Virus record (IMG/VR): IMGVR_UViG_3300032092_002720
Location: 1-64,000 of that record
Length of the DNA stretch: 64,000 nt
Source of the DNA: a virus
Taxonomy: Duplodnaviria; Heunggongvirae; Uroviricota; Caudoviricetes
Strand: one strand, 5' to 3'
Shown here: piece by piece, positions 5,971-37,005 of the stretch
Layout of the letters: every line of letters starts with the position of its first letter
How positions within the stretch are numbered: the first letter of the stretch is position 1
The notes under the pieces: model-generated
Told to the model about the DNA's origin: nothing
What the model saw: only the letters and a program-made list of their open reading frames with translations
Databases searched by the model: none
Position numbers and translations under genes: made by a program

Positions 5971-6004
5971 CACAACTCAAACTCGCTTATATAGGAGCAA
6001 AATT

Positions 6005-6529
6005 ATGTTTAAAGATAATCCGTTCTGGAGAACAAATGACTTCGATCGTTTCTACGTTGGATTCGATGAAGTTGCAAAAAAGCTAAACGCCGCTGCGAGC
6101 CAAGCTCAAGCCGTTGCTGCAAAATACCCTCCATACAATCTGAAGAAGATTGACGAAAACAAGTATACGATCGAACTCGCTGTTGCTGGCTTTGCTAAGC
6201 AAGATCTTGAGATCGAGATCGTAGACGACAAGCTAATCATCAAGGGCAATACCACATCTGGTGAACCTGCAGAGCAGGATTCGAAGGGAGAGTGGACATG
6301 GCCTCAGATGCTGCATCACGGACTTGCAATGCGTCCGTTCACACGAACATTTACTATTGCCGATAACGTAGAAATTCGCGGTGCATCACTTCTGAATGGC
6401 ATTCTGAAGATTGCTTTGGAAGCTATTATTCCAGAGCACAAGAAGCCGAAGAAGGTAAAGATTGAAGACGAAGATACAGAGTATCCGTCGCAAGCTGCCG
6501 AATTCTTGGCAGAAGGTAAGACTAAGTAA
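6005..6529 (+). CDS. Hsp20 / alpha-crystallin family small heat-shock protein
   Basis: AGGAG SD before the ATG at 6005. Alpha-crystallin-like core (YTIELAVAGFAKQDLEIEIVDDKLIIKG ... TFTIADNVEIRGASLLNGILKI). Confidence 0.55.
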   Translation: MFKDNPFWRTNDFDRFYVGFDEVAKKLNAAASQAQAVAAKYPPYNLKKIDENKYTIELAVAGFAKQDLEIEIVDDKLIIKGNTTSGEPAEQDSKGEWTWPQMLHHGLAMRPFTRTFTIADNVEIRGASLLNGILKIALEAIIPEHKKPKKVKIEDEDTEYPSQAAEFLAEGKTK

Positions 6530-6536
6530 AAAAGAA

Positions 6537-6560
6537 GGGGACCTTTCGGTCCCCTTCAAT
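6537..6560. terminator. Bidirectional intrinsic terminator hairpin
   Basis: GGGGACC-TTTC-GGTCCCC between the convergent genes ending at 6529 (+) and 6561 (-), with A/T runs on both sides. Confidence 0.7.
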
Positions 6561-7739
6561 TTATCCCCAATTGGAGTATTGTTTTGTTTTCTTTAAACGA
6601 TCGTCAAGACCGTGTGTACCGCCATTCACTCGCTTTGAGATTTGAGTGATCACCGCATCGGTAACACCTTTGTCTGCAATTGCAAGCAATCCATTCTTAC
6701 GGAAGAACCATAATGCAGACTCAAAAGCCAACTCACCAACCACAAGATCAGGATTCGTCAAGACGTCAGGACGTTTTACGTCAGCGGCAAAGGCTGTATA
6801 GTTGTCTTTCCCGGTCAGTTGGATCGGGCCTCGACCACGCCACTTCCAGCCATCTCCAGAGGCTTCTGAACCGTTCCCCATCCGATTAGCATACACTTTG
6901 TTTGCAATCTTTTCTGGCTTACGAGCATAACCTGCGGTCGAAGCGATCGTTGGAAAATACTTCTTAAAGGTTCCGTTGAGTCCCTTATCCGAATAGTTCA
7001 GGTTCTCAGAGAATACCTTAAACCCGCCTGACTCGTGTGCACACTGACCGAAGAAGTGTGCTGCCTGATTATTTGTCAGCTTGAAGAAGTCTCTTGCCGC
7101 CTTATATGTGCCAGGTCCCCACTTACCATCGGCAGTAATGCCGCATTTAGTTTGGAGAGCAGCTAATGGACCAAGACCTGCAGCTATTGGTTTGGCTTGC
7201 GTTACAGAGTCAGTGATTTGTGAGTTGACTGTCTTGATGGTAGGTGCACCAGCAGCCTTTGTCGTCGAAGGATCAAAGTCGGCAACAGTAGTGTATACCG
7301 TACCACCAGCTTTTGACTTCGTAGCGATCATACGTACTTTGCGATTGCCTCCACCCTTCTTAATCGAAGCATGCACCCAACCTGAATTCTTATCGCCCTT
7401 TGTGTAGAACTCAAGAATCACTTGGTCAAATTCAAGGTTATCACCGATCCAATCGGCAACAGTTTTGTTATCGACACCCTTTACTTCAAAGTCAATTGCC
7501 TGACCGTTGACGTGCTGAGATGTCTTCGAGCCACCGACTGCCTTATTGACAAGCGGAGCACGATACGAAGAGTTGACTGTGACTGGTCCAAACTTAGCAC
7601 GAACTGGTTCGAGAATCTTTTCGCAGCAGTAGCGCATATTCTCGATGTGTTCTGGAGTTGGAGTGTTACTCAGTCCAAGTCTTTTTGCAGTAGGAGAAAC
7701 AATCATTTCTGCCAAAGAAAAATGTTCAGTTAGTTTCAT
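6561..7739 (-). CDS. Modular endolysin: M15 peptidase + peptidoglycan-binding + GH19 glycosidase
   Basis: N-terminus has the Peptidase_M15_3 motifs SSYRAP...SQHVNGQAIDF...WVH. Middle region CGITADGKWGPGTYKAARDF is PG_binding-like. C-terminus carries GH19 motifs GQCAHESGGF and RGPIQLTGKDNY. It is the only - strand gene in the first 59 kb. Confidence 0.8.
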   Translation of the reverse strand: MKLTEHFSLAEMIVSPTAKRLGLSNTPTPEHIENMRYCCEKILEPVRAKFGPVTVNSSYRAPLVNKAVGGSKTSQHVNGQAIDFEVKGVDNKTVADWIGDNLEFDQVILEFYTKGDKNSGWVHASIKKGGGNRKVRMIATKSKAGGTVYTTVADFDPSTTKAAGAPTIKTVNSQITDSVTQAKPIAAGLGPLAALQTKCGITADGKWGPGTYKAARDFFKLTNNQAAHFFGQCAHESGGFKVFSENLNYSDKGLNGTFKKYFPTIASTAGYARKPEKIANKVYANRMGNGSEASGDGWKWRGRGPIQLTGKDNYTAFAADVKRPDVLTNPDLVVGELAFESALWFFRKNGLLAIADKGVTDAVITQISKRVNGGTHGLDDRLKKTKQYSNWG

Positions 7740-7815: not shown

Positions 7816-10323
7816 ATGAATTTTTACACCAATGTTACTCGACATCGAAATCAAATTTTAGTACGTGGAATATCTGACGGCAAGCCCGTCAAATTTTCTG
7901 TGAAATACAAACCTTATTTATTCGTTCAAGCAAATGCACAAACCGAACATAAGAACCTGAAGGGTGAATATGTCGGCAAGATGCAGTTCGACTCCATGTC
8001 TGAAACACGAGAGTTTCTGCAAAGTTACGAAAACGTGGCAGGCATGAACATCTATGGCCTCTCTGATTGGCCTTACATGTATATTTATGACAATTATAAG
8101 GGTGAGATCAGGTATGATCCCGCCCTCATTTCAGTTTGTTCGATCGATATCGAGACCAGCATCGAAGGTGGTTTCCCTGACATCGAGGAAGCAGACAAAG
8201 AAATCACAGGTATTACCATCGGCCGCAATGGTAGGAAGACCACATTTGGATGCGGTGAATATAAGGAACATCAAGACAATGTACAATATTACAAATGCGC
8301 AGACGAATCTGCACTCCTACTCGCTTTCCTTGAAGTCTGGAACGGGTCACTCTACTCGCCTGACGTTGTCACAGGCTGGAACATCGAGTTCTTCGACATT
8401 CCGTATCTTGTCAACAGGATTCGAAAGATTCTTGGATCTGATCACGCTGAACGTCTCTCTCCCTGGAAAATGCTCCGTGAATACAAAGTTAACAGCCGTG
8501 GACGAGAGTGCATTTGCTATGCCCCTGTCGGCATCGCCGTCCTTGATTACATCCAGCTTTATCGGAAGTTTACGTACACAGAGCAGGAATCTTACCGACT
8601 TGACTACATCGCTCAAGTTGAGCTAGGTGAAGGTAAGATTGACTTTCGCGACGAAGGTTATACCGACCTTGACGACCTTCGTCTGAGGAACTTCCAACGT
8701 TACATCGAGTATAACATTCGTGACGTTGAAATCGTTGAGAGGCTCGAAGATAAGCTGAAGCTCATCGAGTTGGTCTATGCTTTGGCTTATGACGCCAAGG
8801 TTAACTATGAAGATACTATGACAACCGTGAAACAGTGGGACGTGATCACTCACAACTACCTACTCGATCGAAACATCGTAGTGCCTCTCAACGATAAGAA
8901 TAAACCCGACCGAGCCTTCGTAGGCGGATATGTCAAAGATCCAAAGGTCGGTATGAGTAAATGGGTTGTGTCGTTCGATTTGAACTCCCTTTATCCTCAC
9001 CTTATCATGCAGTACAACATCTCCCCCGAGACGCTTGTCACTCGCTTAAAAGATAAGGTGTCAATCGACGACCTACTTGTTGGTGGCGCTAGTCAGTTCG
9101 GTGGCTATCTTGATAAAACGAACTGCACTATCGCCGCCAACCTTTGTATCTATACAAAAGAAAAACGCGGCTTCTTGCCATCGATTATGGATCGTATGTA
9201 TGACGATCGTACGAAATACAAGAAGCAGATGATCGAGTGTAAGAAGGAATATGAGAAGACGAAAGATCCTCGTCTTGTCAAGGAAATCGCACGACTCGAT
9301 AACATGCAGATGGCCAAGAAGATTCAGTTGAACTCGGCTTATGGTGCTCTCGGTAACAAGTGGTTCCGTTGGTTTGACGTGAACAATGCCGAAGCCATCA
9401 CCACCTCTGGTCAGCTCAGCATTCGTTGGATCGAGAAGAAGCTCAACGACTATCTCAACAAATTGTTGAAGACAGAAAACTTTGACTATGTGTTGGCTTC
9501 TGATACCGACTCGGTGTATGTGACGCTCGAATACCTCGTCAAGAATGTATTCGGTGATGATGTGCCTGAAACCAAGAAGGTGATTCAGTACATCGACAAG
9601 ATCTGTAAGGAACGAATCGAACCATTCATCGATCGTTCTTATCAAGAGCTTGCCGAATATATGCATGCATATGCTCAGAAGATGCAAATGAAGCGAGAGA
9701 ACATCGCAGACAAAGGCATCTGGAAAGCCAAGAAGATGTACATCCTCAATGTGTGGAACTCTGAAGGCGTTGAGTATGAGAAGCCGAAGTTGAAGATGAC
9801 AGGCATCGAAGCAGTTCGATCCTCGACTCCGACCGCATGTCGTGATGCCATTAAAAAGTCTCTCGAGATTATTATGGCTGGATCTGAATCGGATCTTCAG
9901 AAGTATGTGGCCAACTTCAAGTCAGAGTTTTCCTCTCTTGGATTTGACGACGTGGCCTTCACCCGTGGTGTCAAGGACATCGAGAAATATTGGGTAGGCG
10001 GTAGGTTCCAAAGCCAGACACCTATCCATGTTCGTGGTTCTGTGGTCTACAACGAAATGTTGAAGAAGAAGAAACTCACAAATAAATATCAATCTATTAC
10101 CAGCGGTGAGAAGATTAAGTTCGCATACTTGAAAAACCCAAATCCGACACAAGACTATGTTATCTCGTGTCCGAATGGTCTACCAAAAGAATTGAAGATG
10201 GAAGCTTACATCGACTATGCTGTGCAGTTCGAGAAAGGCTATCTCAGTCCTATCGAATCTATCACTAACACAATGGGCTGGCAAGCAGAAAAACGCGCAA
10301 CACTGGAGGATTGGTTCTCATGA
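7816..10323 (+). CDS. 43: Family B DNA polymerase (T4 gp43-like)
   Basis: Exo I motif CSIDIETS, Pol motifs SLYPHLIM and LASDTDSVYV (DTDS), KxxxNSxYG. T4-like N-terminus, so the start is probably the ATG at 7816 (MNFYTNV) rather than 7792. Confidence 0.9.
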   Translation: MNFYTNVTRHRNQILVRGISDGKPVKFSVKYKPYLFVQANAQTEHKNLKGEYVGKMQFDSMSETREFLQSYENVAGMNIYGLSDWPYMYIYDNYKGEIRYDPALISVCSIDIETSIEGGFPDIEEADKEITGITIGRNGRKTTFGCGEYKEHQDNVQYYKCADESALLLAFLEVWNGSLYSPDVVTGWNIEFFDIPYLVNRIRKILGSDHAERLSPWKMLREYKVNSRGRECICYAPVGIAVLDYIQLYRKFTYTEQESYRLDYIAQVELGEGKIDFRDEGYTDLDDLRLRNFQRYIEYNIRDVEIVERLEDKLKLIELVYALAYDAKVNYEDTMTTVKQWDVITHNYLLDRNIVVPLNDKNKPDRAFVGGYVKDPKVGMSKWVVSFDLNSLYPHLIMQYNISPETLVTRLKDKVSIDDLLVGGASQFGGYLDKTNCTIAANLCIYTKEKRGFLPSIMDRMYDDRTKYKKQMIECKKEYEKTKDPRLVKEIARLDNMQMAKKIQLNSAYGALGNKWFRWFDVNNAEAITTSGQLSIRWIEKKLNDYLNKLLKTENFDYVLASDTDSVYVTLEYLVKNVFGDDVPETKKVIQYIDKICKERIEPFIDRSYQELAEYMHAYAQKMQMKRENIADKGIWKAKKMYILNVWNSEGVEYEKPKLKMTGIEAVRSSTPTACRDAIKKSLEIIMAGSESDLQKYVANFKSEFSSLGFDDVAFTRGVKDIEKYWVGGRFQSQTPIHVRGSVVYNEMLKKKKLTNKYQSITSGEKIKFAYLKNPNPTQDYVISCPNGLPKELKMEAYIDYAVQFEKGYLSPIESITNTMGWQAEKRATLEDWFS

Positions 10324-22474: not shown

Positions 22475-23080
22475 ATGATAAAAAAACGATTCAGAGAGTT
22501 TGTTGGTTCAGGTACACTCACGATATTCGATATCGATGAGACGCTGTTCCATACATATGCAAAGGTTGCTGTTGTGAAAGATGGCAAGGTTGTTCGAATG
22601 CTAGACAACCAAGAGTTCAATACTTACAAGCGTAAGAAGGGTGAAACCTACGATTTCGGAGAGTTTGCTAACGCAGAAGTGTTCCGCAAGTCATCGAAAC
22701 CTATCACTCGTATGGTTGCTAAAACGAAAGCTATCTTTGCCAATTCTCGTAAGAATCCTCATAGTCGAGTGATTATCTGCACAGCACGAGCTGACTTCGA
22801 TAACAAGGATATCTTCCTTCAGACGTTCAGAGATCATGGTCTGCCTATCGATAATATCCATGTCGAACGTGCCGGCAACTTGAAGATCGACTCTTCGGCA
22901 GAAGCCAAGAAGATCATCTTTCGAAAGTATATAAATACTAAGAACTACGTAAAGCTTCGGTTGTTTGATGATGCTCCTAGCAATCTTCAGGCATTTCTTT
23001 CCTTGAAGAAGGAATTTCCTGACATTACGTTCGAAGCCTTCTTTGTAAATCCTGATGGATCGGTAAAAACAGTACGATGA
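22475..23080 (+). CDS. HAD-superfamily phosphatase
   Basis: Motif I FDIDETLFH (DxDxT). The promoter -10 sits only 6 nt upstream, so the transcript is probably leaderless or nearly so. Confidence 0.55.
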   Translation: MIKKRFREFVGSGTLTIFDIDETLFHTYAKVAVVKDGKVVRMLDNQEFNTYKRKKGETYDFGEFANAEVFRKSSKPITRMVAKTKAIFANSRKNPHSRVIICTARADFDNKDIFLQTFRDHGLPIDNIHVERAGNLKIDSSAEAKKIIFRKYINTKNYVKLRLFDDAPSNLQAFLSLKKEFPDITFEAFFVNPDGSVKTVR

Positions 23081-24246
23081 CAAGTTTTAGAAATTTCCTT
23101 GCAGAAGAGCTTGATGAAAGCAAACTGAAGCATCTTGAGCATGCTGAAGATCACGTGATCAATGCTGGTCACGAAGGCTTTTCTCATGCCTATCACAATC
23201 TGAAAGATGTGCATGATAAGTTGACAGGAAAGAAGAACGACACAAGAATCACCATGAAGTATGATGGTTCTCCTTCTGTGGTATTCGGTCGCCATCCTGA
23301 AACTGGTCGTTTCTTCGTAGCATCAAAGTCTGTCTTTAACAAGAATCCAAAGATCAACTATACAGAAGAAGATATTCAGCGTAACCATGGACATGCTCCT
23401 GGCCTCGTGTCGAAGTTGAAAGCAGCTTTGCAACATCTTCCGAAGGTGACACCGAAGAAGGGTGTTTTCCAAGGAGATATCATGCATACTCCTGACGATG
23501 TACATGAATCTGATGGTCGTGTACACTTTACGCCTAACACTATCACTTACTCTGCTAGCAAAAACTCTCCGCACGGTAAAGCCGCATTGAATGCCAAGGT
23601 TGGTGTCGCTGTACATACAAAGTATAACGGCAAGAACCTCGAGGATATGCAAGCCGAACATGGTGCTCAGCTAGATGACTTTGGACTGCACAAAGACGTG
23701 CATCTGATTTCGACAGAGCATCATCTCGATAACATTAAGTTTACTCCCCAGCATCGCGAACGCTTTGCAAAGGCTATGACTGCAGCTGCTGCATACAATA
23801 AAAAGGCAAAGCCTGAAACTTATGAATCTTTGAAGGGCCACGAAATTCCTTTGAAGACTTACATCAATCATACGGTTCGTACTGGCACTAAGCCTAATGT
23901 AGAAGGTTTCATGAACCATTACATGAAGTCTCATCAGAAAAAAATCGAAAGTGTAAAGACAGCAGCATCGAAGGCAACTAAGACTGCGGCTATGGAATCA
24001 GACATCGGTCACGTTCAACGTAATCGTGCTCACTTCGAAAACGTTCTGAACCAGCACAAGCATCTACAAAGAGCAAAGGATATCCTTGCGAAGACTCTTT
24101 CGAGTAGTGCTGAGTTCGATCATAGCATCAACGGTAAGAAGTCAAAGCCTGAAGGATTCGTAGTAGTCAGACATAATCGTCCTACTAAAATCGTAGATCG
24201 TGCTGAATTCTCGGCTGCCAATTTCAACAGGGATAAAACAGTATGA
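23077..24246 (+). CDS. His-rich hypothetical protein with KxDG and EGFVVV motifs (possible nucleotidyltransferase)
   Basis: MKYDGSP resembles ligase/capping motif I, and PEGFVVVRH resembles motif IV, but the spacing (~300 aa) is atypical. ATGA overlaps on both sides. Confidence 0.3.
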   Translation: MTSFRNFLAEELDESKLKHLEHAEDHVINAGHEGFSHAYHNLKDVHDKLTGKKNDTRITMKYDGSPSVVFGRHPETGRFFVASKSVFNKNPKINYTEEDIQRNHGHAPGLVSKLKAALQHLPKVTPKKGVFQGDIMHTPDDVHESDGRVHFTPNTITYSASKNSPHGKAALNAKVGVAVHTKYNGKNLEDMQAEHGAQLDDFGLHKDVHLISTEHHLDNIKFTPQHRERFAKAMTAAAAYNKKAKPETYESLKGHEIPLKTYINHTVRTGTKPNVEGFMNHYMKSHQKKIESVKTAASKATKTAAMESDIGHVQRNRAHFENVLNQHKHLQRAKDILAKTLSSSAEFDHSINGKKSKPEGFVVVRHNRPTKIVDRAEFSAANFNRDKTV

Positions 24247-24854
24247 AGTCTATTCACATCACACAAGGACGATTCAATCCTGTTCATGCCGGCCATGAAA
24301 TGGTTGTCAAGCATGTGATGGACGCAGCCAAGAAAGAAGGTGCAGATCATAAGATCTTGACAACCGGATCACATGATGCCAAGAAGAATCCTCTGACTCC
24401 TGAGCAGAAGGTCAAGCATCTTTCTCGTGCTGTCAAAGGTGCACATGTCGAGGCGATGACGAAAGAACATCCGACTCTGCTTCATCAGATGTCGAAGCTG
24501 CATAAGCAAGGTTACACACACGTGACTATGCACGTTGGTTCTGATCGTGTCAAAGAGTTTCATGATCTACTGCACAGATATAATGGTCAAGATCTGAAGC
24601 ACGGCCACTATAACTTTAAGAGTATTAAAGTAAAGTCTGTAGGCGGTGAGCGCAAAGAAGGCGGCGGTGGAATCGAATCTGCTTCTGGTACTACTATGCG
24701 TAAGCATGCCACATCCGGTGATAAAGAATCATTCCACAAGATGGCTCCATCCGGCATGAGTAAAGCACATAAAGACGAACTGTACCACGATGTTCGCAAG
24801 GGTATGGGTATCCACGAATCGTTCATCGCAAGATTTAAAAACTGGATTAGCTGA
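24243..24854 (+). CDS. NMN adenylyltransferase (NadM/NadR-type)
   Basis: GRFNPVHAGH matches the NadM/NadR GRFQPFHKGH motif. ASGTTMRKH matches the ISSTxIR motif. Confidence 0.65.
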   Translation: MKSIHITQGRFNPVHAGHEMVVKHVMDAAKKEGADHKILTTGSHDAKKNPLTPEQKVKHLSRAVKGAHVEAMTKEHPTLLHQMSKLHKQGYTHVTMHVGSDRVKEFHDLLHRYNGQDLKHGHYNFKSIKVKSVGGERKEGGGGIESASGTTMRKHATSGDKESFHKMAPSGMSKAHKDELYHDVRKGMGIHESFIARFKNWIS

Positions 24855-25588
24855 TGCCGCAATATTTCCCAATGGATAATCTGTTCCTCAATATTGCAAG
24901 AGGCCTTGTAAAAGGCACTAGCGCTGTGCATAAGTTTGGTGCAGTTCCATCCATGAGTACTAATACCACAGGCACGGTATGGGATATCGGAGATACTGTC
25001 TATCCATGGTCTGCATGGGCCACAGCAGGAACTATCACTATTGATCGTGCTGATGCTGCAGATGCTAATAAACAGATCACAGTAGTAGGCCTCGATTCCA
25101 GTTATAATGCTCTCACTGAAACCATTACTCTTACTAATGCAACTGGCAATGCTTCTACAAACTCTTTCATCCGTATATTCAGAGCATTCGTGGTCGATGG
25201 AACTACAAACGTTGGTTTAATTTCTATTAAAAGAAATGGTACGACAGTAGCAGCTATCACTGCTGGTAAAGGCCAAACTTTGATGGCAGTGTATACTATT
25301 CCAGCTGGACACACTGGATATATTATCAAGGGTACTGCAACATCTCAGGCTGGTGCCGATGGGACTGGAGACATGTTCATTCGTTACTTCGGTCAATCGT
25401 CTTTTAGAGTAGGACATTCTTTCGAAGTTTCAGGTGCAGGCGGTCAATATCTTTACGAGTTTTCTACTCCTATTGCAATTCCTGCAAAATCTGACATCGA
25501 CGTGAGAATTGTTACTCGTTCAAATAATGGTCGTTATACAGCAGCATTTGACTTAATTCTTATCAAAGATTCCTTGGGTGGCGGTTGA
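24854..25588 (+). CDS. hypothetical (possibly structural, Thr/Gly/Ala-rich)
   Basis: ATGA-coupled; beta-rich composition. Confidence 0.35.
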   Translation: MPQYFPMDNLFLNIARGLVKGTSAVHKFGAVPSMSTNTTGTVWDIGDTVYPWSAWATAGTITIDRADAADANKQITVVGLDSSYNALTETITLTNATGNASTNSFIRIFRAFVVDGTTNVGLISIKRNGTTVAAITAGKGQTLMAVYTIPAGHTGYIIKGTATSQAGADGTGDMFIRYFGQSSFRVGHSFEVSGAGGQYLYEFSTPIAIPAKSDIDVRIVTRSNNGRYTAAFDLILIKDSLGGG

Positions 25589-25662
25589 TTTATTATAAAT
25601 AGATTTGCGGTTAGGCTACGGCAATCCCGTTTGTTTAACAGATAAGCCCAAGGGAAACTCTG

Positions 25663-28014
25663 ATGGAAGATAAGAATAAGAAACCGGTTGATACGAAGCA
25701 GTTAAAAAAGCCAACCGGCACATCTGTAACTGGCAAACCACTTGATGGTATCGAGATCCGTCCTCAGCTCAAAGGTCTCGGCAATCGCCAGCACAACGAG
25801 GATACCGTAGTCCTAACTGACACTTTAGCTGAGAAGAAAGCACTGACACTCGTTCAGCGCCAACGCAGAGCTCGCATCTTGAGAGCTAAAGAGCCGAAGA
25901 TGCAGAGAGCCAAAGAAGTCTCGAAACATAAGCTTGCCTCAGATGAGAAGCTGAAGGCTCGAGCAATTGTCAAAGCAAGAAACATTGTCAAGATGAGGTT
26001 TGCAGCTCGTAAGGGAACACCTTATACCGAGCTCACTACGTCTGAAAAGATTCAAGTCGATAAGGTAGTCGATAAGAAGGTCAAGCTGATCAGAAGATTA
26101 GCTGCTCGCCTTCTACCTGCCCTTCGTAAAGCAGAGGTAAATCGTCTCGCTTCATTCCAATCGGGAGCAAAGCTACAACATGCGACTGCCGCTCCAGTAA
26201 ACGAAGAATTCAATACAATCGTAGAGAGTCTTGATAATAAGACTTCTATGCAACTCGTTGACATTATCAACGATTCTATCGATGCCCTCAACGAGAATAA
26301 TAACTCGATGGGTATCACGCTGAAGAGACTGCTAAGCGCGGTCCTTCCAGAAGACGTAGCAACGTCAACCCTCATGAAAAAAGCCGAGAAGACCGGCATA
26401 CCGTTCTCGACCCTCAGAGAGGTGTTCGAGCGCGGTTCTTTTGCGTGGGAAGACGACGGTAGAACCACACAAGAACAATTCTCTTTCTCAAGAGTGAATA
26501 GCTATATCGCCAAAGGCAGAGCATGGACACTCGATGCAGATCTTCGCGAAGAGAAAGAAGTCAACGACAAGCTTGATAGTGTCTTCGAGGCCTATCATAC
26601 TGGCTTGAGTGCTTCGACTGCCAAGGCTCGTGAAGCCCATTGGAAGAAGATGGAAAAGTATTCTGATCGAGATCCACGTGCATATCAAGATGCGCCTGGT
26701 GACAAGGCAGCTCGTAAGAAAGATATGCCACAATCTGTACATACAAAGAAATATAAAGCGATGTATGGTGAAGAGATCGAACAGATGGTTAACGAAGCAG
26801 CTGACGGTCTTGCTGCAAAGGCAAAGAAGTCAGGCGTTTCCTTATCCACTCTGAAGAAAGTGTATGCTCGCGGTGTTGCTGCTTGGAACAGCGGTCACCG
26901 CCCAGGAACTACACCTCAGCAGTGGGGTATGGCTCGCGTAAACTCTTACATCACAAAGGGCAAAGGCACTTATCACGGCGCTGATAAGGATCTTCGTGAA
27001 TCTGATATCAATGAAAGCCTATGGGCTAACATTCATGCCAAGCGTAAGAGAATTAAAGCTGGATCTGGCGAACGTATGCGTAAGCCTGGATCGAAGGGCG
27101 CACCGACTGCAGCAGGTTTTAGATCAGCATCTGAAGCAGTCGAAGATCAAGTAGGCAACAAGGTTGCTGATACAGCTAGACACGGTAAAGTGCAATATGT
27201 CGGCGTAAGAACCGCCGCGCACAAAGAAACTGGTACACAAGAGCGTCAAGAAGTTCAGTATATCAAGCGTCATAAGATGCATACAAAAAAAGAAACTGAC
27301 GCTGATCCACAACAGATTCGTATTGCTCAAGACCAGATCAAGAAGAAGGTCATCGACGAGTCGAACAATACGCCATACGTCAAGCCTTTCACAGAAAAGG
27401 GTAGCACTCAGCAGCGCGGTTGGAAAGCTTCGAACAAGCATGGCAAGGTAAAATACTTTGGCATGGACTTCAAGGCTTCTGCTCATAAGCATGCTGGTAT
27501 TTCAGAAGCTGCTGAAAAGCATCCGATTGTAAAAGAATACGACTCATTAAAAAAGCACGATATTAAAACTCTGCATGGACTTATTAAGCAACAAAGCAAA
27601 GTAGTTGATACTTCTGAATTCAAAACAAAAGATCATGCAATATCACACTACCTGCGTAATAAGCATGGCCATAAGAAGGTAGATGCTGCGTTTGGATTGA
27701 AAGAAGATACTCCAGCACAACGCGAAGTCGGTACAAAATCGCTTGTCAAGAAGTATCAGAAAGAAACTCCTGGTCAAGAAAAAGCAGATCTGAACGAGTC
27801 GTTCAACATCGAGTTCGCAGCTGGTATCGGTGTAGGTCTGACTGCTAATGAATGCGGTATCTTCATCAAGCCAGGATTCGAGATGCATCCGAGCGTAGTA
27901 GAAGAAGAGAAAGAAACCAAATCAGACTTTCGTATGGTAAAGGTTCGCACACCAAAGGGATGGGCTTGGAGAAAAGTTCGTCGCGAAGTTGATATCGAGA
28001 GGGACGCAGAATGA
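25663..28014 (+). CDS. Lysine-rich 783-aa protein with internal repeats
   Basis: Two copies of a ~50-aa motif (LSTLxxVxxRGxxAW...QWGxARVNSYIxKG...DLRE) and two copies of NKHGKVxYxG. Very basic N-terminus. Confidence 0.5.
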   Translation: MEDKNKKPVDTKQLKKPTGTSVTGKPLDGIEIRPQLKGLGNRQHNEDTVVLTDTLAEKKALTLVQRQRRARILRAKEPKMQRAKEVSKHKLASDEKLKARAIVKARNIVKMRFAARKGTPYTELTTSEKIQVDKVVDKKVKLIRRLAARLLPALRKAEVNRLASFQSGAKLQHATAAPVNEEFNTIVESLDNKTSMQLVDIINDSIDALNENNNSMGITLKRLLSAVLPEDVATSTLMKKAEKTGIPFSTLREVFERGSFAWEDDGRTTQEQFSFSRVNSYIAKGRAWTLDADLREEKEVNDKLDSVFEAYHTGLSASTAKAREAHWKKMEKYSDRDPRAYQDAPGDKAARKKDMPQSVHTKKYKAMYGEEIEQMVNEAADGLAAKAKKSGVSLSTLKKVYARGVAAWNSGHRPGTTPQQWGMARVNSYITKGKGTYHGADKDLRESDINESLWANIHAKRKRIKAGSGERMRKPGSKGAPTAAGFRSASEAVEDQVGNKVADTARHGKVQYVGVRTAAHKETGTQERQEVQYIKRHKMHTKKETDADPQQIRIAQDQIKKKVIDESNNTPYVKPFTEKGSTQQRGWKASNKHGKVKYFGMDFKASAHKHAGISEAAEKHPIVKEYDSLKKHDIKTLHGLIKQQSKVVDTSEFKTKDHAISHYLRNKHGHKKVDAAFGLKEDTPAQREVGTKSLVKKYQKETPGQEKADLNESFNIEFAAGIGVGLTANECGIFIKPGFEMHPSVVEEEKETKSDFRMVKVRTPKGWAWRKVRREVDIERDAE

Positions 28015-28304
28015 TCGGATTTAAGGAATTCATCACTGAGCGTGGCGAAGATTCGAAAGGCCACTTCATTGCCACCGAGAAGGGTGCAGGTATGACAGCG
28101 AAGGGTGTAAAAGCCTATCGTGCCAAGAATCCTGGATCCAAGCTTCAGACTGCTGTGACTGGAAAAGTAAAACCCGGATCCAAAGATGCAGGTAGACGTA
28201 AGTCTTTCTGTGCTCGTATGAGCGGCGTCAAAGGTCCGATGAAAGATGAAAAAGGTAGACCGACTCGCAAGGCGATGTCGCTTCGTAGATGGAAGTGCAA
28301 TTGA
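28011..28304 (+). CDS. small basic protein
   Basis: ATGA overlap with the upstream gene; K/R-rich. Confidence 0.35.
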   Translation: MIGFKEFITERGEDSKGHFIATEKGAGMTAKGVKAYRAKNPGSKLQTAVTGKVKPGSKDAGRRKSFCARMSGVKGPMKDEKGRPTRKAMSLRRWKCN

Positions 28305-28738
28305 TGGAAGAGATTACAAACCCGCTGAAGGTAGCCTTCGCTGACACTTATGCTTTCTATGTGAAGGCACAGAACTATCACTGGAATGTCGAAGGTCCAT
28401 TCTTTGCGATGTACCACGAGTTCTTTGGTAAGATCTACGAAGAAGTAGGTGGAGCTATCGACACGTTTGCCGAAGAGATTCGTGCACAGAATGCATATGC
28501 TCCTGCAGCATTCGGTCGTTTTAAAGAATTGACAACTATTCAAGACGAAGTTCTTATCATTAAGCCTGAACAGATGGTTGCCAACTTGTTTTCAGACAAT
28601 GCCAAAGTACTGGCTTCTGTACAAGCAGCAAGAGACGTAGCAGATAAGTACAATGAAAACGGTCTCGTTAACTTCCTCGAAGAGAGACTCGATCAGCACA
28701 ACAAACATGCATGGATGCTCAAAGCATCGATGAAATAA
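28289..28738 (+). CDS. Dps / ferritin-like DNA-protection protein
   Basis: YAFYVKAQNYHWNVEGPFFAMYHEFFGKIYEEV and EEIRAQNAY match the Dps ferroxidase-site helices. An alternative start at 28304 overlaps the upstream stop (TGATG). Confidence 0.7.
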   Translation: MEVQLMEEITNPLKVAFADTYAFYVKAQNYHWNVEGPFFAMYHEFFGKIYEEVGGAIDTFAEEIRAQNAYAPAAFGRFKELTTIQDEVLIIKPEQMVANLFSDNAKVLASVQAARDVADKYNENGLVNFLEERLDQHNKHAWMLKASMK

Positions 28739-28774
28739 CATTTCATAAATAGATTTAAATTAACGGAGCAAAAG

Positions 28775-30238
28775 ATGTTAACTAAGAAAATTGCAGATTT
28801 CAGTGCTGATCTTCTCGACACAGTACGCGGAGTACTTGGTGAAGCCAAGAAGTGCCCAGCCGATTGCGAATGCCCAAAGTGCGAAGCAGAAGAAGATGAT
28901 GAAGATGAAGATGAGATGAAGAAAGAAGGCTATATGCCTACTGCTGATGAGCCGACTGAAGCTAACAAGAAGACGGCACAGAAGATTCGCGACATGATGG
29001 CAAAAGAAAAGAAGCCAGTCAAGGAAGATGCAGAACAGATCGATGAGATCTCATCTGATATGGCGCATCGTTACCTAAAAGGAAAGCGTGAAAGAGATTA
29101 TGATATTAGTCCAGACGGCAAATCCAGCAAATTAAAGAAGCCGCAGTCTTTTGACAAGATGAATAAAGATATGAAGAGCACTGTGCGTGCGCTCAAAACA
29201 ATTGAAAAGGCTAAGAAAGCCAATGAAGATGTAGAGCATACCAATTGCGGAACTCCTGATTGTTGCGGTCAGTGCGATACAGCAGCGCCGATCAATGAGA
29301 TCTCGAAGGGAACACTTGGTCGTTACATCAACAAAGCCAAAGATTCTATTGATATGGCTTCTTATAGACAGGGTGCACACCATGGTGATCTCGGTAGTCC
29401 AAGATACAACAGACTCGAAAAGAAGCTATCAAAGCGTCATAAAGGTATTTCAACTGCAGTCAATAAACTGACCAAGGAAGCTTCTGGCGACCAACACATT
29501 GAAGTAACACACGCCGTTACTGGTCAAAAGAAAAAGGTTCCTGTTCATCCTGATAATGCTTTTAAAGCTCTAAACCATTATAAGAGTCTTTCGTCAACGA
29601 AGTCGGCTCGTATTGTTTCAGAAGATGCCGAACAGATCGATGAACTATCGAAGGCAACTATGGGTCGTTACATCAACAAGGCTGCTACAAAAATGGGTAG
29701 TCAAGGTGTTACTGCTGGTCTGAAGATTGCTGCAGACGAAAAGTCAAGCAAGAACTTTAAGGATATGGGCAAGCGCGAAAAGGGTATCAAACTCGCCGTC
29801 AATAAGCTGACTAAGGAAGAGCAAGACTTCATCGACTCTCTGAACAATGACATGTTCGAAGAAGTAGAAATCACTGAAGCACGCGGTCGTCCTAAGAAGG
29901 CTGGTGCCAAGGATTTCACGATCCATCCGAAGACAAAAGAAAAGCTGATGCATAATAATCCTGAGCATATGAAGAAGATCGAAGCTCTTCAGAAGAATAA
30001 AGTTCTTGAGAAGCCAAAGATTGAAGCTGGTCAGCACATCATGAATCAGCTACAAAAAGCTAAAACATCGATGCTAGGTGGCAGCACGATTCACTTTACA
30101 CATGGTGACTCGAAGCATGTTTCTGGTACTCATGCTGCAAAGCTTCTGTCTAAATATGCGGGCATGAAACCGAATGAGAAAGAAGACTTCCAAAAGAAGA
30201 TCGGCCACTCACACGAACAACTAATGAAGCACGTATAA
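28775..30238 (+). CDS. Lysine-rich 487-aa protein with internal repeats
   Basis: Repeats EDAEQIDE(I/L)S...GRYINKA and KxxKGIxxAVNKLTKE occur twice. CxxC...CxxC pair near the N-terminus. Confidence 0.45.
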   Translation: MLTKKIADFSADLLDTVRGVLGEAKKCPADCECPKCEAEEDDEDEDEMKKEGYMPTADEPTEANKKTAQKIRDMMAKEKKPVKEDAEQIDEISSDMAHRYLKGKRERDYDISPDGKSSKLKKPQSFDKMNKDMKSTVRALKTIEKAKKANEDVEHTNCGTPDCCGQCDTAAPINEISKGTLGRYINKAKDSIDMASYRQGAHHGDLGSPRYNRLEKKLSKRHKGISTAVNKLTKEASGDQHIEVTHAVTGQKKKVPVHPDNAFKALNHYKSLSSTKSARIVSEDAEQIDELSKATMGRYINKAATKMGSQGVTAGLKIAADEKSSKNFKDMGKREKGIKLAVNKLTKEEQDFIDSLNNDMFEEVEITEARGRPKKAGAKDFTIHPKTKEKLMHNNPEHMKKIEALQKNKVLEKPKIEAGQHIMNQLQKAKTSMLGGSTIHFTHGDSKHVSGTHAAKLLSKYAGMKPNEKEDFQKKIGHSHEQLMKHV

Positions 30239-30460
30239 GGTGTATCATGGCAATTAATGTCGGAACTTTTATAGTAAAAAATACGGTTGTTGAAAACGAA
30301 AAAGCTGAGCCTTTACCAAAAGTTGCACAGATGGAAGAAGGCACTGTCGTTCATAATGGTAAACCTAAAAAGTTTAATAAAAAAATGTCAGCATACATGA
30401 TTGATATGCTTACATCCGAAGAATGATAAATAAAACAAAGAATCTTTAGGAGAAACTAAG

Positions 30461-31327
30461 ATGGCTCAATGGGGCAATACAGACGATGCTGCAAACTCGG
30501 TCCTATGGGCCACAACTGCAGTGAACAAAACACCTAACACAGTAAACCAAACAGCGCTGTTTGGTAACACCACTGTCGGCGCATTTGTTGCTGGCGAAGC
30601 AGTAGGCCAATTCGGTCTTGATGCTACAGAAATTCGCGTTTCTGGCAATGCAGCAGTTCAGCAATATATTATTACGAATGCTGGTTCAGGTTATGCCGCT
30701 AACGCTGCGGTCACAGTAGCTAACACGACTGGTGGTGCAAATACCCTTGTTGCTAACTCAACTGTAGCAGCAGGTAAAGTAACTACGCTGACAGCAAACG
30801 GCACAGCTATTCGCGGTTACACCGCTGCACCAGCAGTAACAATCGCTGCACCAGCTCTTATTATCTTCAACGGTAATACTGCTGTTACTCCGAACACAAC
30901 AACTGGTGCGTTCATTGCTATCTCGTCAGCAAACTCGTTCTTAGCAGTTGGCGATAAGCTTGTATATGCTGGTAACGCCACATCAACACCAGCAACTCTA
31001 GCTGACAACCGTCCATACTATGTTAGCTTTGCTAATACGTCGGGCATCAAACTTTCAGATGAGCCTAACACAGCAAACATCAACTTTGCAAAGGCAAGCG
31101 GCGATAACACGACTGCTGGCGGTGCTACGCTTCAAGGTGAAACTGCAACAGCTGTAGCTGAACTCACAGAAACAGGTTACACCAAGGGTGCAGCACATAC
31201 TGGTTGGGTTCTTCGTACAGTTGGTACAGGCGGTCGCGCAGGTCGCGTTCAGTATGAAACACTCGTAGCAATGGGTGGAACGTTCTCGACTGATGCATCT
31301 GACGATACAATTCTTCCTGACGCATAA
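30461..31327 (+). CDS. Ala/Thr/Gly-rich fibre-like structural protein (putative)
   Basis: Low-complexity beta-rich composition typical of fibre/decoration proteins. Confidence 0.35.
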   Translation: MAQWGNTDDAANSVLWATTAVNKTPNTVNQTALFGNTTVGAFVAGEAVGQFGLDATEIRVSGNAAVQQYIITNAGSGYAANAAVTVANTTGGANTLVANSTVAAGKVTTLTANGTAIRGYTAAPAVTIAAPALIIFNGNTAVTPNTTTGAFIAISSANSFLAVGDKLVYAGNATSTPATLADNRPYYVSFANTSGIKLSDEPNTANINFAKASGDNTTAGGATLQGETATAVAELTETGYTKGAAHTGWVLRTVGTGGRAGRVQYETLVAMGGTFSTDASDDTILPDA

Positions 31328-31588: not shown

Positions 31589-31977
31589 TGATTGAAAAAC
31601 TTGATGATTCCAATTTCTTGATATATGCTGCTAAGTGTTATGATAATCCGCAATGTTTTGAGGATCTTGAATTTTACGAAGACTTAGCCAGATTCAAATA
31701 TATTAAGAGATTGCTTAATCGCTATGAAGAGTCCGGAGAATTAAAAGATAGATTAATCGTCAACCATCTCGTTGTTCTGTACAACGTATTTGGTAACGAA
31801 GCTACAAGATTACTCTTCTTTAAATTGGACGGCTATCACCATATGTTGAAGCCGTTCATTATTTTATTAGGAAGACTTCCTGAGAAGATACCGAATATAG
31901 GCATAGATAATAAAACTATTCTAACCAATGATATTGTTGCAGACGAAGTCATAGCACAAAAACTAAGGAAGATTTAA
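31588..31977 (+). CDS. hypothetical protein
   Basis: TAATG overlap. Confidence 0.3.
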   Translation: MIEKLDDSNFLIYAAKCYDNPQCFEDLEFYEDLARFKYIKRLLNRYEESGELKDRLIVNHLVVLYNVFGNEATRLLFFKLDGYHHMLKPFIILLGRLPEKIPNIGIDNKTILTNDIVADEVIAQKLRKI

Positions 31978-32447
31978 TGGCCAATAAAGAGAAGCAAGAA
32001 TACGACTACGAAGGCGACATGGCCATGTCGCAACTGAAGTCTATCATTGCCAATGCTCAGCGCATGCATGATATGCTGAAGGTAGATACGAATCTTCCTG
32101 AATGGGTTCAGTCGAAGATCACGCTGGCCGAAGACTATATCTCGACGGCTTCGAACTATCTCCAAGGCGAGATGAGCGAAGAAGTAAACATAGACAAGTA
32201 TGCTGATTCGTTGATAAAGCGCGACAAACAAAATCTTAGCAAAAGCCACGTAGTTCATGCAGCTCGCGTGGCAGGCGTAGATCATAAGAAACTTATGGCT
32301 GCTGTTAATCAAAAAGTAGGTCGCATTAAAGAAGAAGCAGCAGTGAATTCTGTTGGTTCTGGGCAAGTTGCAGGCTTACAAGGTGAACCGCCTGTAAGAA
32401 AGAAAAAGAAAAACGTTATGACTTTCAATAGGTTTATGAAGAAGTAA
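31977..32447 (+). CDS. hypothetical protein
   Basis: Coupled ORF. Confidence 0.3.
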   Translation: MANKEKQEYDYEGDMAMSQLKSIIANAQRMHDMLKVDTNLPEWVQSKITLAEDYISTASNYLQGEMSEEVNIDKYADSLIKRDKQNLSKSHVVHAARVAGVDHKKLMAAVNQKVGRIKEEAAVNSVGSGQVAGLQGEPPVRKKKKNVMTFNRFMKK

Positions 32448-33814: not shown

Positions 33815-33845
33815 ATTATGATTTCGTTCACTCACGGAGTCTAAT

Positions 33846-34085
33846 ATGTTTAAGAAACTAAAGGATCTCATTTTCCAGACATTCACTGGAAAAGATAATA
33901 AGACGCTTGATCTTGGTAGAATTCTATGGGCCAAAGGCGTAATGCTTTTCTTTGGTCTATCAATCTACGACATCTATCGCGGTGCAGAATTTGATGCATC
34001 GACATGGGGCGTCGGTCTTGGTGCCGTTCTTGCGGCAGGCGGTGCAGCTCTTGCACTGAAAGCTGGAACGGAACCTACTGAGTAA
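33846..34085 (+). CDS. small two-TM membrane protein (holin-like candidate)
   Basis: Two TM helices (MLFFGLSIYDIY; LGAVLAAGGAALAL). Size and topology are holin-like. Confidence 0.3.
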   Translation: MFKKLKDLIFQTFTGKDNKTLDLGRILWAKGVMLFFGLSIYDIYRGAEFDASTWGVGLGAVLAAGGAALALKAGTEPTE

Positions 34086-34567
34086 TGGCAACACCATCGG
34101 TCAACAAGTTAGCTGAAGATGTGTCGTATCTGAATAGAGATATGGCAGTCGTCAACACGCTTGTTGGCCGTTTGGATATGACTATCGACAAACTTACTGA
34201 TATTTCAAGTAACGTATCGAATCTTCTTGCTGTTCACGAAACTAAGTTGACTTCCCAGGAAATCATAAGTAAACAACTATCAGATCTAGTGGAAGCGCGC
34301 AGAGTGGAAACAGACGACAAGGTCCAGCTACTACACGAACGTATCTCTTCTGGAGAGCGCGAGCTAAAAACCAGTATTGATCAACAATACGACGAGCTCA
34401 TGAAAGAAATTAAAGAGATGAGAGCTGAGTCAGCTACTCAGCATACCACTCTAAGCGATAGAATTACTGCCATGGAAAAATGGATGTGGACAGTCATCGG
34501 TGGAGCTGCTATCGTAGGTGGTATTATTACATTGGTGCCATGGAGTACAATATTCGGGATTGGATAA
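34085..34567 (+). CDS. coiled-coil protein with C-terminal TM anchor
   Basis: TAATG overlap; C-terminal WTVIGGAAIVGGIITLVPW. Confidence 0.35.
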   Translation: MATPSVNKLAEDVSYLNRDMAVVNTLVGRLDMTIDKLTDISSNVSNLLAVHETKLTSQEIISKQLSDLVEARRVETDDKVQLLHERISSGERELKTSIDQQYDELMKEIKEMRAESATQHTTLSDRITAMEKWMWTVIGGAAIVGGIITLVPWSTIFGIG

Positions 34568-34570
34568 ATT

Positions 34571-35113
34571 ATGAGGCGCGTGATTGACAACTTCTTACCG
34601 AGAAGTTATTTTAATGAAATAAAACATATGATCGAACAGCCAGCATTTCGCTGGAACTTCTCATCGATACTTCCTGAAGGATACGACGGTCAAACTGAAA
34701 AAGACTGGTACTTCGTGAAGAAAATATACTCAGAGCACGAACACATCGAAGATGCGCTAGGATACTGGCAAACTATCAGACCGATGTTCTATTTCTTTGA
34801 AGAGAAACTTAACTTCATTACAGAACACATCATCAGCGTTAACGTCAATAGCATGATGAATCAAGGCCGTAAGCGTGCGCACGGCTGGCATAACGATTGC
34901 CCATATCCGCATTACGTTGCTCTTTTCTATATCAATACTTGTAATACAGCACCTACATTATTTGAGGATGGTGCAGAAGTCGATCACATCGAGAATCGAT
35001 TACTGTTCTTTGAAGGCGGAGATCATATCGATAATCGGCATAGTACTAATCTTCCATTAGATGTCGAAAGAAGAATAGCGATTAATTTTAATATTAAAGG
35101 CTCTTTATTCTAA
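34571..35113 (+). CDS. 2OG-Fe(II) oxygenase-like (putative)
   Basis: WHNDCPYPH (HxD) with a distal GGDHIDNRH and RRIAINF (RxS-like). Confidence 0.3.
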   Translation: MRRVIDNFLPRSYFNEIKHMIEQPAFRWNFSSILPEGYDGQTEKDWYFVKKIYSEHEHIEDALGYWQTIRPMFYFFEEKLNFITEHIISVNVNSMMNQGRKRAHGWHNDCPYPHYVALFYINTCNTAPTLFEDGAEVDHIENRLLFFEGGDHIDNRHSTNLPLDVERRIAINFNIKGSLF

Positions 35114-36406: not shown

Positions 36407-36671
36407 GTTAGTAGACAACGAGTTTGGAATCGAGTACGAGCAGATCCCGATCAAGCGACTGCGAATCTTCCGAGTAGGCAAGCAGTGGCTTGTCGAGTAT
36501 CAACGTTATGTTCGTCTTTGGGCGCCGTGGGACCATTTCTGGTGGTACAATGACGGGCAGTACGTAGAGTATTATGATGCTCTTGGCCGAGTCAATGATC
36601 TGAAGGCCAACGGTTACGTGAATATCCCGCGGTTTATGAATGCAAAAACTTTTGAGGTGAATGATGCGTGA
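36399..36671 (+). CDS. hypothetical protein
   Basis: ATGA-coupled. Confidence 0.3.
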   Translation: MTELVDNEFGIEYEQIPIKRLRIFRVGKQWLVEYQRYVRLWAPWDHFWWYNDGQYVEYYDALGRVNDLKANGYVNIPRFMNAKTFEVNDA

Positions 36672-36810
36672 AGTAACATATGAAGATGCTATGGAGTTTC
36701 TTCATCTACTCAAGGAAAATATGCGAGAATGGTCATATGACGACTATGAACCAGAAATTGAATACATCCAAGAAATGCTTTGGCGATATGAAGATATGAG
36801 GAACAGTTAA

Positions 36811-37005
36811 ATGAAAGATGAAATTAAAATGGTGCTTCGGAAACAGTTCCAAGCGAATATTGACAAGCATGCAGTGAACGTGCGTGTTATGATGAATAAC
36901 CCAATGGCTATTCATGAACATACTGATTATATGGGTGCAATTGAACTTGAACTTGGACATATCGCCGAGTACAAAGACAAGTTGGAAGCATTGGAACATA
37001 TTTAA
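36811..37005 (+). CDS. hypothetical protein
   Basis: Ends TAATG into thyX. Confidence 0.3.
   Translation: MKDEIKMVLRKQFQANIDKHAVNVRVMMNNPMAIHEHTDYMGAIELELGHIAEYKDKLEALEHI

Follow-up and report, generated by a model that had tools for sequence, protein, structure and literature searches.

Lysine-rich cassette proteins beside a Dps gene in a marine T4-like phage: candidate head-packaged proteins

The window analysed here, a 64,000-nucleotide stretch from the genome of an uncultured Caudoviricetes phage (IMG/VR record IMGVR_UViG_3300032092_002720, positions 1 to 64,000), encodes between positions 25,663 and 30,238 a Dps-family ferritin-like protein, a small basic protein and, on either side of these, two large lysine (K)-rich proteins. 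The main finding is that the small basic protein starts with a ten-residue peptide like the capsid-targeting sequence of phage T4, and that both large proteins are built from small cassettes which are shuffled among relatives and across families. Comparison with other phages leads us, with somewhat more confidence than doubt, to a reading in which the lysine-rich proteins are head-packaged internal or ejection proteins, possibly processed polyproteins. The Dps protein is most likely a functional mini-ferritin, a co-transcribed auxiliary product for iron and H2O2 control, and is probably not itself a head component.

All four open reading frames (ORFs) lie where the initial annotation had placed them, at 25663–28014 (783 amino acids, aa), 28011–28304 (97 aa), 28289–28738 (149 aa) and 28775–30238 (487 aa), and composition bears out that the two flanking proteins are lysine-rich and the 97-aa protein basic. 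The principal features are:

25663..28014, plus strand: K-rich protein 1 (783 aa), a mostly disordered cassette string
28011..28304, plus strand: basic DUF6321 protein (97 aa), in ATGA overlap with the 783-aa gene
28011..28040, plus strand: leader MIGFKEFITE of the 97-aa protein, by likeness to the T4 capsid-targeting sequence
28304..28738, plus strand: Dps-family ferritin-like protein (144 aa from M6; 149 aa with the 28289 start), by Pfam, PDB and ligands
28775..30238, plus strand: K-rich protein 2 (487 aa), mostly disordered and cassette-built

The 97-aa protein and its leader

The 97-aa protein matches Pfam DUF6321 (PF19846; 6.5e-21, 75.2 bits against a cut-off of 28.5), is strongly basic (K 16.5%, R 9.3%, isoelectric point (pI) 10.6) and is near-identical in three relatives; DUF6321 occurs in 426 phage records. 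Both DUF6321 and DUF5824, which is found in the 783-aa protein, are Pfam families of unassigned function, and a literature search on the DUF names found no paper mentioning either.

The internal proteins of T4 are directed to the prohead core by the leader MKTYQEFIAE, in which residues 4 and 7 control targeting and residues 8 and 10 processing. The MIGFKEFITE of the 97-aa protein agrees with this leader at all four mapped positions. The pattern ^M..[FY]..[FY][ILV].E is present at two of the 220 ORF starts of the window, where 0.019 would be expected, the two carriers being the 97-aa protein and a DUF6267 protein (MTSFRNFLAE) encoded upstream. The 150-kb genome of the related phage C48C1 has it four times (0.06 expected), all within 61.8–68.1 kb, in the syntenic cluster. 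One of these carriers is again a DUF6267 protein (MLDFKNFITE), with its counterpart in the window. CDS0088 (123 aa, K/R-rich, MLSFKQFVSE) is homologous to aa 58–170 of the 783-aa protein, and CDS0090 (90 aa, MITFKKYLEE), a DUF5824 protein, to the second DUF5824 copy of the 783-aa protein (score 250). When these two are aligned to the 783-aa protein, the leader Glu of CDS0088 falls within two residues of its L-A-E57, and that of CDS0090 on its V-N-E378. The remaining carrier, CDS0096 (105 aa, MKKFKQYIDE), has no counterpart in the window; by eye, its EYQGKKV cassette resembles an insert in P0079, a member of the 783-aa family. Positions 4, 7, 8 and 10 are kept in all eight leaders although the variable residues change from one to the next, so that the peptide itself is under selection. 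We consider it likely that the 97-aa protein is targeted to the head.

Leader-like motifs were also seen at C-termini, in a 156-aa protein of the window (31977–32447, ...NVMTFNRFMKK) and in ORF93 of cyanophage S-SCSM1, a virion protein (36626–36835, ...RTFKEFLEYIE). The homologue of the 156-aa protein in a related contig, L003, has 248 aa and carries DUF5824.

Cassettes and junctions in the two large proteins

For the 783-aa protein (K 12.8%, net charge +46, pI 9.8) more than 2400 homologues reach E<=1e-3; they are 441–783 aa long. Two stretches of the 783-aa protein match Pfam DUF5824 (PF19141; 1.2e-24, 87.3 bits, gathering cut-off 25). Repeats were scored by the Smith-Waterman method against shuffled sequences, and the duplication of a ~50-aa motif, which the initial annotation had read from the sequence, was upheld: aa 233–296 against 379–446 scores 131, compared with 23 +/- 4.3 for shuffles (0/1000 reach it). 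The two reported NKHGKV(Q/K)Y repeats are likewise a real repeat (blocks around aa 505–545 and 591–636 score 63 against 26 +/- 5, 0/1000 shuffles), with the amendment that the first copy reads ARHGKVQY. Self-BLAST of the proteins reported none of the repeats. The parts of this protein, and those of the 487-aa protein described below, are:

25663..25833, plus strand: conserved N-terminal 57 aa of the 783-aa protein, ending in invariant L55-A-E57; candidate propeptide
26359..26550, plus strand: DUF5824 core copy a (aa 233–296), by Pfam and repeat score; model confidence (pLDDT) 74–80
26797..27000, plus strand: DUF5824 core copy b (aa 379–446), after V-N-E378, by Pfam and repeat score
27013..27132, plus strand: 'LWANIHAKRKRIK...GAPT' (LW) cassette (aa 451–490), after I-N-E450; phrog_16028, 5.8e-21
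27148..27498, plus strand: two HGKV cassettes (aa 496–545 and 567–612, the second after I-D-E566), by repeat score
29027..29821, plus strand: three ~70-aa repeats of the 487-aa protein (A 85–160, B 170–236, C 283–349), each starting (E)QI(D/N)E-[IL]S, by Smith-Waterman
29876..30235, plus strand: I-T-E368, invariant RGRPKK and conserved C-terminal domain of the 487-aa protein, by alignment and pLDDT

Among 120 homologues of the 783-aa protein the N- and C-terminal parts are constant and the middle cassettes come and go; L55 and E57 are invariant in the family alignment, which, like the others used here, consists of close relatives (63–95% identity). A single DUF5824 copy is the rule among relatives, which makes the second one here a lineage-specific duplication, and the number of HGKV copies varies from 0 to 2. 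The LWANIHAKRKRIK cassette is ~80% identical to small ORFs of many marine podophages, where it stands alone (phrog_16028), and it also lies inside P0306, a member of the 487-aa family. DUF5824 is likewise present inside P0340, P0350, P0354 and other members of that family; the cassettes thus cross families. A wider pool of small basic modules, among them 'GKPCAKQPGQ', 'CWxGY...VPNCV' and 'WPSAYASGALVKCRK', is recombined in lysine-rich proteins of many marine phages, for example at 2446–3261 of P-SSM2 (ending in DUF6321) and 8343–9236 of S-CREM2. In P-SSM2 the protein with the C-terminal DUF6321 is gp114, sited between gp3 and gp16.

The AlphaFold2 (AF2) model of the 783-aa protein has a mean pLDDT of 52 and is folded only in small islands; the second HGKV copy is modelled as a small beta sheet. 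A Foldseek search of this model against the PDB gave nothing significant, the matches being sigma factors at E>=0.44. These, together with a best Pfam score of E=0.11 for HTH_psq, led us to rule a helix-turn-helix (HTH) nature of the DUF5824 core unsupported; some homologues are labelled 'predicted transcriptional regulator' by the Joint Genome Institute (JGI). Pfam scans of ten single cassettes at E<=10 gave DUF5824 only, and a tblastn search of phages with the N-terminal 232 aa found no match. The model does match a 602-aa protein of Sinorhizobium phage phiM12 (S5MQF5) in BFVD at E=1.3e-5, and phrog_23027, whose profile is also 602 positions long and to which we assume S5MQF5 to belong, covers aa 58–182. 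The other BFVD matches were only uncharacterised DUF5824 or DUF6321 proteins.

The 487-aa protein (K 15.6%, pI 9.1) belongs to a family with 1010 cluster representatives at E<=1e-3 and lengths of about 350–980 aa. Here too the ends are constant, and the middle gains, loses, duplicates and exchanges cassettes, so that their number varies. Two duplicated blocks had been described in this protein. The repetition is real, and the count is three units: B against C scores 114 (shuffles 26 +/- 4.7) and A against C, more weakly, 71, both unmatched in 300 shuffles. The C-terminal part is the only region with a pLDDT of 65–78, in a model whose mean is 44, and it has no PDB or Pfam match. Before it lies EARGRPKKAG (aa 368–377), in which R370, G371, R372, P373 and K375 are invariant and which is AT-hook-like by pattern match only. 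Foldseek of the whole model against the PDB gave a best E of 1.3, which is not significant; as both AF2 models are of low confidence, the fold searches of the two large proteins are uninformative. In profile searches neither of the two families, nor DUF6267, had a match among PDB sequences. We also considered 'polyvalent proteins' of the Iyer/Aravind type for both large proteins, and rejected this because no enzymatic domains are present.

Two four-Cys clusters in the 487-aa protein, CPADCECPKC (aa 27–36, 28853–28882) and CGTPDCCGQC (aa 159–168, 29249–29278), may be metal-binding knuckles. The former is largely invariant in the family, and similar clusters, ECPKCE and GCCEAC, occur in C48C1 CDS0098 and CDS0096.

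The borders of the cassettes have a common form. The 487-family repeats each open with (E)-Q-I-D-E-[LI]-S, and the I-x-E at positions 89, 173 and 288 is kept in every homologue having the column. In the 783-family the borders read INE↓S, IDE↓S, I(S/N)E↓A, (K/N)E↓D and LNE↓S. The 783-aa protein contains 12 [LI]xE where 6.1 are expected (p about 0.015), and its [LIV]xE is 1.6–2.6 times commoner than [LIV]xD, xK or xQ after normalisation for residue frequency; the 487-aa protein shows no overall enrichment (5 against 4.5 expected). The boundaries of long cassette indels adjoin [LIVMF]xE in 14/26 and 17/39 cases, with backgrounds of 0.21 and 0.16. The prohead protease of T4 has the consensus L/I-x-E and cuts after Glu in this short motif, as at LIE-9 of gp21 itself.

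Gene order, promoter-like motifs and Dps

The four genes had been thought to be all translationally coupled. This fits the first two, through their ATGA overlap, and the 97-aa gene and Dps, where the stop codon of the former overlaps an in-frame ATG of the latter (TGATG, 28302–28306). It does not extend to Dps and the 487-aa gene, because the 36-nt spacer between them has a GGAG and a promoter-like motif of its own. The ATG at 28304 (M6) is the likelier Dps start, since gene callers give 144–145 aa in relatives. Three promoter-like motifs mark the gene block:

25594..25601, plus strand: TATAAATA, T4 late-promoter-like by motif match only, 69 nt 5' of the 783-aa gene
28744..28751, plus strand: CATAAATA, late-promoter-like, 31 nt 5' of the 487-aa gene
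30425..31327, plus strand: GATAAATA and the 288-aa Gly/Ala/Thr-rich protein that follows it, an adjoining member of the same block

All three are motif matches to the T4 late-promoter-like class NATAAATA, and their upstream distances are fixed (-69, -31, -35) across four genomes, the window and three related contigs. TATAAATA, which is the consensus of T4 late promoters, lies at -69 of K-rich protein 1 in 4/4; CATAAATA is kept at -31/-32 of K-rich protein 2 in 3/4 (two of the three relatives), and GATAAATA at -34 to -36 of the 288-aa gene or its homologue in 4/4. Homologues of gp55 and gp33 are encoded by C48C1. Judging by these motifs, the block is probably transcribed late.

By its gene content the window is from a T4-like marine myophage: it encodes a T4-type DNA polymerase (gp43-type), UvsX, a gp41-like helicase, a clamp-loader ATPase, gp61 primase, NrdA/NrdB, a gp46/47-like exonuclease and gp32 homologues. 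Pieces of the locus are similar to Pelagibacter phage HTVC008M, the Methylophilales Melnitz phages, C48C1 and cyanophages. The order DUF6267, cytidylyltransferase, (244 aa), K-rich 1, DUF6321, Dps, K-rich 2 is repeated on the three contigs, which are 114–163 kb long; K-rich 1 varies between 533 and 783 aa and K-rich 2 between 429 and 793 aa. Dps is flanked on contig L008 by insertions of unrelated genes, two of which have the look of beta-rich structural proteins. The window does not include the head module; C48C1 has genes for a gp21-type protease, scaffold and major capsid protein, the last showing a ...GGFLTE which we take to be like the T4 site.

The 244-aa protein (24854–25588; phrog_8198, 1.6e-51) and the L008 inserts (438 and 434 aa; 2189–3505 and 5645–6949) are rich in Thr, Ser, Gly and Asn and have a beta-rich structural look, which suggests a hot spot for accessory genes of the virion. 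Elsewhere in the window, at 56325–56690 on the plus strand, is a permuted (two-piece, alphaproteobacterial-type) transfer-messenger RNA (tmRNA) with the ARAGORN tag ANDNDSFADIRLAA and Rfam scores of 100 bits (tmRNA_permuted) and 87 bits (alpha_tmRNA). It hints at an alphaproteobacterial host. Near it, TATAAATA motifs occur at 56352, inside the 5' end of the gene, and 56746, downstream.

The Dps identification was right. The protein matches Pfam Ferritin (PF00210, 4.1e-21), PHROG 3636 (2.8e-29) and 45 solved Dps-family chains in the PDB, the best being 8ff9 at 2.3e-23 (1n1q, 2.7e-18). The canonical Dps ligands, in Listeria innocua numbering, are His31, His43, Asp58 and Glu62, with Asp/Glu47 nearby and Trp32. 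The 149-aa numbering of the phage protein coincides with that of Listeria and Brevibacillus, and in it H31, H43, D58, E62 and W32 are invariant in 121 sequences of the lineage. Position 47, Asp or Glu in bacterial Dps, is Gly in 120/121, so that four of the five ferroxidase residues are kept. The protein scores under the cut-offs of the NCBIfam DpsA/Dps models and hence is no equivalog of a named subfamily. It is acidic (pI 5.0), with one Lys in its N-terminus MEEITNPLKV..., and the Lys-rich flexible DNA-binding tail of E. coli-type Dps was not found at its N-terminus; this is no bar to family membership, since Listeria-type Dps also lacks the tail. A capsid-targeting leader on Dps was looked for and rejected, the pattern being absent from both candidate starts.

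In the phage collection Dps of any kind was found in just 44 records, with at most ~30% identity over the full length in every case. Close variants number in the hundreds in metagenomes, on contigs of up to 163 kb; given these variants and the invariant ligands, Dps is a stable gene of the lineage with its active-site residues under purifying selection. The initial annotation had treated Dps and its neighbours as one module of DNA-condensing or DNA-protecting proteins. Joint action of Dps with the flanking proteins as one module is unlikely: Dps is acidic, has neither the tail nor a leader, and is split from both neighbours in one relative. As it has no leader and can be separated by unrelated genes, nothing ties it to the head.

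Head cargo, rival readings and known systems

The neighbouring genes connect the locus to phages whose virions have been analysed. Upstream lie:

23077..24854, plus strand: DUF6267 protein (leader MTSFRNFLAE) and cytidylyltransferase, which is like nicotinamide mononucleotide adenylyltransferase (NMNAT), by Pfam, PHROG and leader pattern

In CsCl-purified virions of S-SCSM1, a T4-like cyanophage, 45 proteins were found by mass spectrometry (PMC9602691). Its record marks ORFs 89, 90, 91, 92, 93, 95 and 97 as virion proteins, in a cluster just 5' of a holin-like gene, primase and nrdAB; this is also the position of the locus studied here. ORF91 (33819–35048) is 33% identical to the cytidylyltransferase of the window (4e-25) and starts MKSFLQFLKE, ORF96 is 42% identical to a 129-aa protein of the window (7e-31), and ORF98 matches a 160-aa protein. 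By eye, with BLAST silent, the N-terminus of the 288-aa protein (MAQWGNTD) resembles that of ORF95 (MALWGNSD), a virion protein by mass spectrometry. Mass spectrometry of CsCl-purified S-CREM2 virions detected the cytidylyltransferase gp154 and gp160 (PMC10665884). The former (4609–5469) starts MKNFSSFLTE; the latter (297 aa, 20% K) combines, as a mosaic, modules also present in P-SSM2 gp114. ORF92 (520 aa) is 18% K with a net charge of +41, ORFs 89, 93 and 97 are also Lys-rich, and together with gp160 these four make up a set of virion-found Lys-rich mosaic proteins with 13–20% K. The module of ORF93 is fused to DUF6321 in phrog_10538.

NMNAT-like proteins are also listed in the virions of S-CBWM1 and S-SZBM1 (PMC10665884). 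A leader on the S-SCSM1 and S-CREM2 enzymes would explain their repeated detection; the two proteome papers make no mention of one on cyanophage NMNAT/cytidylyltransferase (PMC9602691, PMC10665884). The upstream genes of the window form a trio (22475–24854, plus strand), consisting of a HAD/polynucleotide-kinase-like phosphatase (DIDETL; phrog_415), DUF6267 and the cytidylyltransferase, which could be a head-delivered set for nucleic-acid repair or nicotinamide adenine dinucleotide (NAD)-related reactions. The K-Y-D-G motif of DUF6267 (K-W-D-G in C48C1) recalls motif I of ligases and capping enzymes.

We propose, as a working scheme, that the conserved, probably late-transcribed block in the replication arm of this phage encodes head cargo. 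The leader would dock the 97-aa DUF6321 protein to the prohead core and be removed after Glu10 by the prohead protease. The large Lys-rich proteins, as disordered strings of small basic cassettes, would be co-packaged and possibly cut at their [ILV]-x-E junctions; we put their packaging at even chances or slightly better, and their processing lower. The small basic products, proteins or peptides, would remain with the DNA, bind it and neutralise its charge, and enter the host along with it, like the T4 internal proteins. An association with DNA is suggested by the charge, by the invariant RGRPKK and by the T4 internal proteins, in which only lysines are reported to contact DNA phosphates. The DNA-condensing or DNA-protecting role first suggested would have the same basis of composition, RGRPKK and T4 analogy; no DNA-binding fold was detected. 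Dps, from the same transcript, would act in the infected cell, trapping Fe(II), consuming H2O2 and protecting phage DNA before it is packaged. A more elaborate version, which we regard as highly improbable, has leaders delivering both DUF6321 and ligase-like DUF6267 cargo, giant polyproteins that the prohead protease cleaves at twelve or more [ILV]-x-E junctions to give basic, DNA-bound peptides, and Dps entering the head as partner of the translationally coupled 97-aa protein, where it would trap iron and serve as an antioxidant, slowing the decay of packaged DNA in sunlit sea water.

Several points weigh against head packaging. The case for internal virion proteins is comparative, drawing on the leader, cyanophage virion mass spectrometry, the late-promoter-like motifs and the [ILV]-x-E junctions, and is indirect for this phage; the proteomic data in it are from other phages, not from this one or its close relatives. 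The leader pattern is not at the N-termini of the 783-aa (MEDKNKKPVD) or 487-aa (MLTKKIADFS) proteins, and the locus sits among replication genes, outside the head module. The large proteins resemble virion-found cyanophage proteins only in position and composition; when both families were compared with S-SCSM1 ORF91 and ORF92 by hhalign, nothing but short motifs without significance came out. Both proteome groups warn that non-structural proteins may be carry-over (PMC9602691, PMC10665884). The [ILV]-x-E junctions fit proteolytic processing and, equally, a repeat edge that doubles as a recombination joint. Because the cassettes also occur in podophages, which presumably have no T4-type protease, they would have a function independent of it, and conservation is weak evidence because the aligned sequences are close relatives.

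The same proteins might never leave the cell. The Lys-rich proteins would then compact phage or host DNA together with Dps, lending it a basic surface in trans, and an acidic, tailless Dps in a tight operon, overlapped by the 97-aa gene and held in the same gene order in three relatives, speaks for this; the invariant RGRPKK, the HTH-like look of the DUF5824 core and the JGI labels point the same way. Such an arrangement leaves unexplained the leader motif and the tie to virion-detected proteins, its DNA-binding fold or family was not detected beyond the weak HTH_psq score, and the L008 insertions separate the 97-aa gene from Dps and Dps from K-rich 2. We judge it unlikely. Fusions raise another idea: DUF5824 is joined to the cytidylyltransferase in HTVC008M (gp130) and C48C1, whose enzyme also holds the 'AYHxGLS...APGDK' and 'GTxxLxKKYxKxTPGQ' cassettes of the 783-aa protein, phrog_455 is DUF6267 plus cytidylyltransferase, and phrog_3041 is cytidylyltransferase plus DUF5824. 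The Lys-rich proteins could on these grounds be detached accessory modules, adaptors for substrates or partners of DUF6267/cytidylyltransferase enzymes in a nucleic-acid or NAD reaction, with Dps unrelated. However, in many phages the cassettes are joined to unrelated proteins or stand alone, the Lys-rich proteins are largely disordered, and the fusions fit equally well handles that anchor or package head-delivered enzymes with the DNA; this reading is distinctly improbable.

It might finally be that adjacency means nothing, and that fast-evolving repeat proteins of no specific function lie beside an acquired Dps gene in a plastic region. T4-type genomes do have hyperplastic regions, the lengths of both families vary to an extreme degree, and genes are inserted in the block of relatives. 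Against this stand the many invariant residues in the N- and C-terminal parts of both large proteins, the near-identity of the 97-aa protein across relatives, the conserved gene order and promoter positions, and the very large families, and we give this possibility only a slim chance.

If the head-cargo reading is true, the T4 system of capsid targeting and protease would be conserved in abundant marine T4-like phages, and a simple N-terminal pattern could predict the proteins, enzymes included, that these phages inject. Widespread dark-matter modules (DUF5824, DUF6321 and the LW cassette) would be given a context, that of DNA-associated cargo inside the head, and the recurring NMNAT-like enzymes of cyanophage virion proteomes would be explained. 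The strictly conserved Dps of an ocean phage lineage would add an iron and oxidative-stress gene to viral auxiliary functions.

Of the known systems, bacterial Dps (Listeria innocua, Brevibacillus brevis 1n1q, Pseudomonas 8ff9, E. coli) has in common with the phage protein the ferritin-like four-helix-bundle family and H31, H43, D58, E62 and W32 at canonical positions; the phage protein differs in its Gly47, acidic pI, missing Lys-rich tail and phage origin, and is at most ~30% identical to the few Dps of cultured phages. The T4 internal proteins IPI, IPII, IPIII and Alt share with the head cargo proposed here a 10-residue leader with aromatics at 4 and 7, I/L at 8 and E at 10, a very basic, Lys-rich composition, genes outside the head module, diverse cargo with only the leader in common, and a T4-like genome. 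There is no sequence homology, and the leader here is on the 97-aa and DUF6267 proteins, not on the large ones, which are 5–8 times longer, disordered and cassette-built, with many candidate internal sites; the T4 proteins are cut once, and packaging here is predicted from sequence.

Candidate multiple cuts after Glu in a short motif, yielding small fragments, are shared with the T4 core proteins gp22, gp67 and gp68 and with the ejection proteins of phiKZ and SPN3US. In T4 the core proteins are acidic scaffolds, and their fragments are lost from the head, whereas the fragments here would be basic, and no homology to any of these proteins was found. With S-SCSM1 and S-CREM2 the locus shares its place in the genome, which follows the helicase/late-sigma region and precedes primase and nrdAB, its flanking genes (cytidylyltransferase 30–33% and 129-aa protein 37–42% identical), an enzyme with the same leader, and Lys-rich mosaic proteins from an overlapping module pool. 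It differs in that its large proteins have no significant direct homology to theirs, in having Dps, which is absent from their cluster, and in bearing the leader not on the cytidylyltransferase but on the DUF6267 protein upstream of it.

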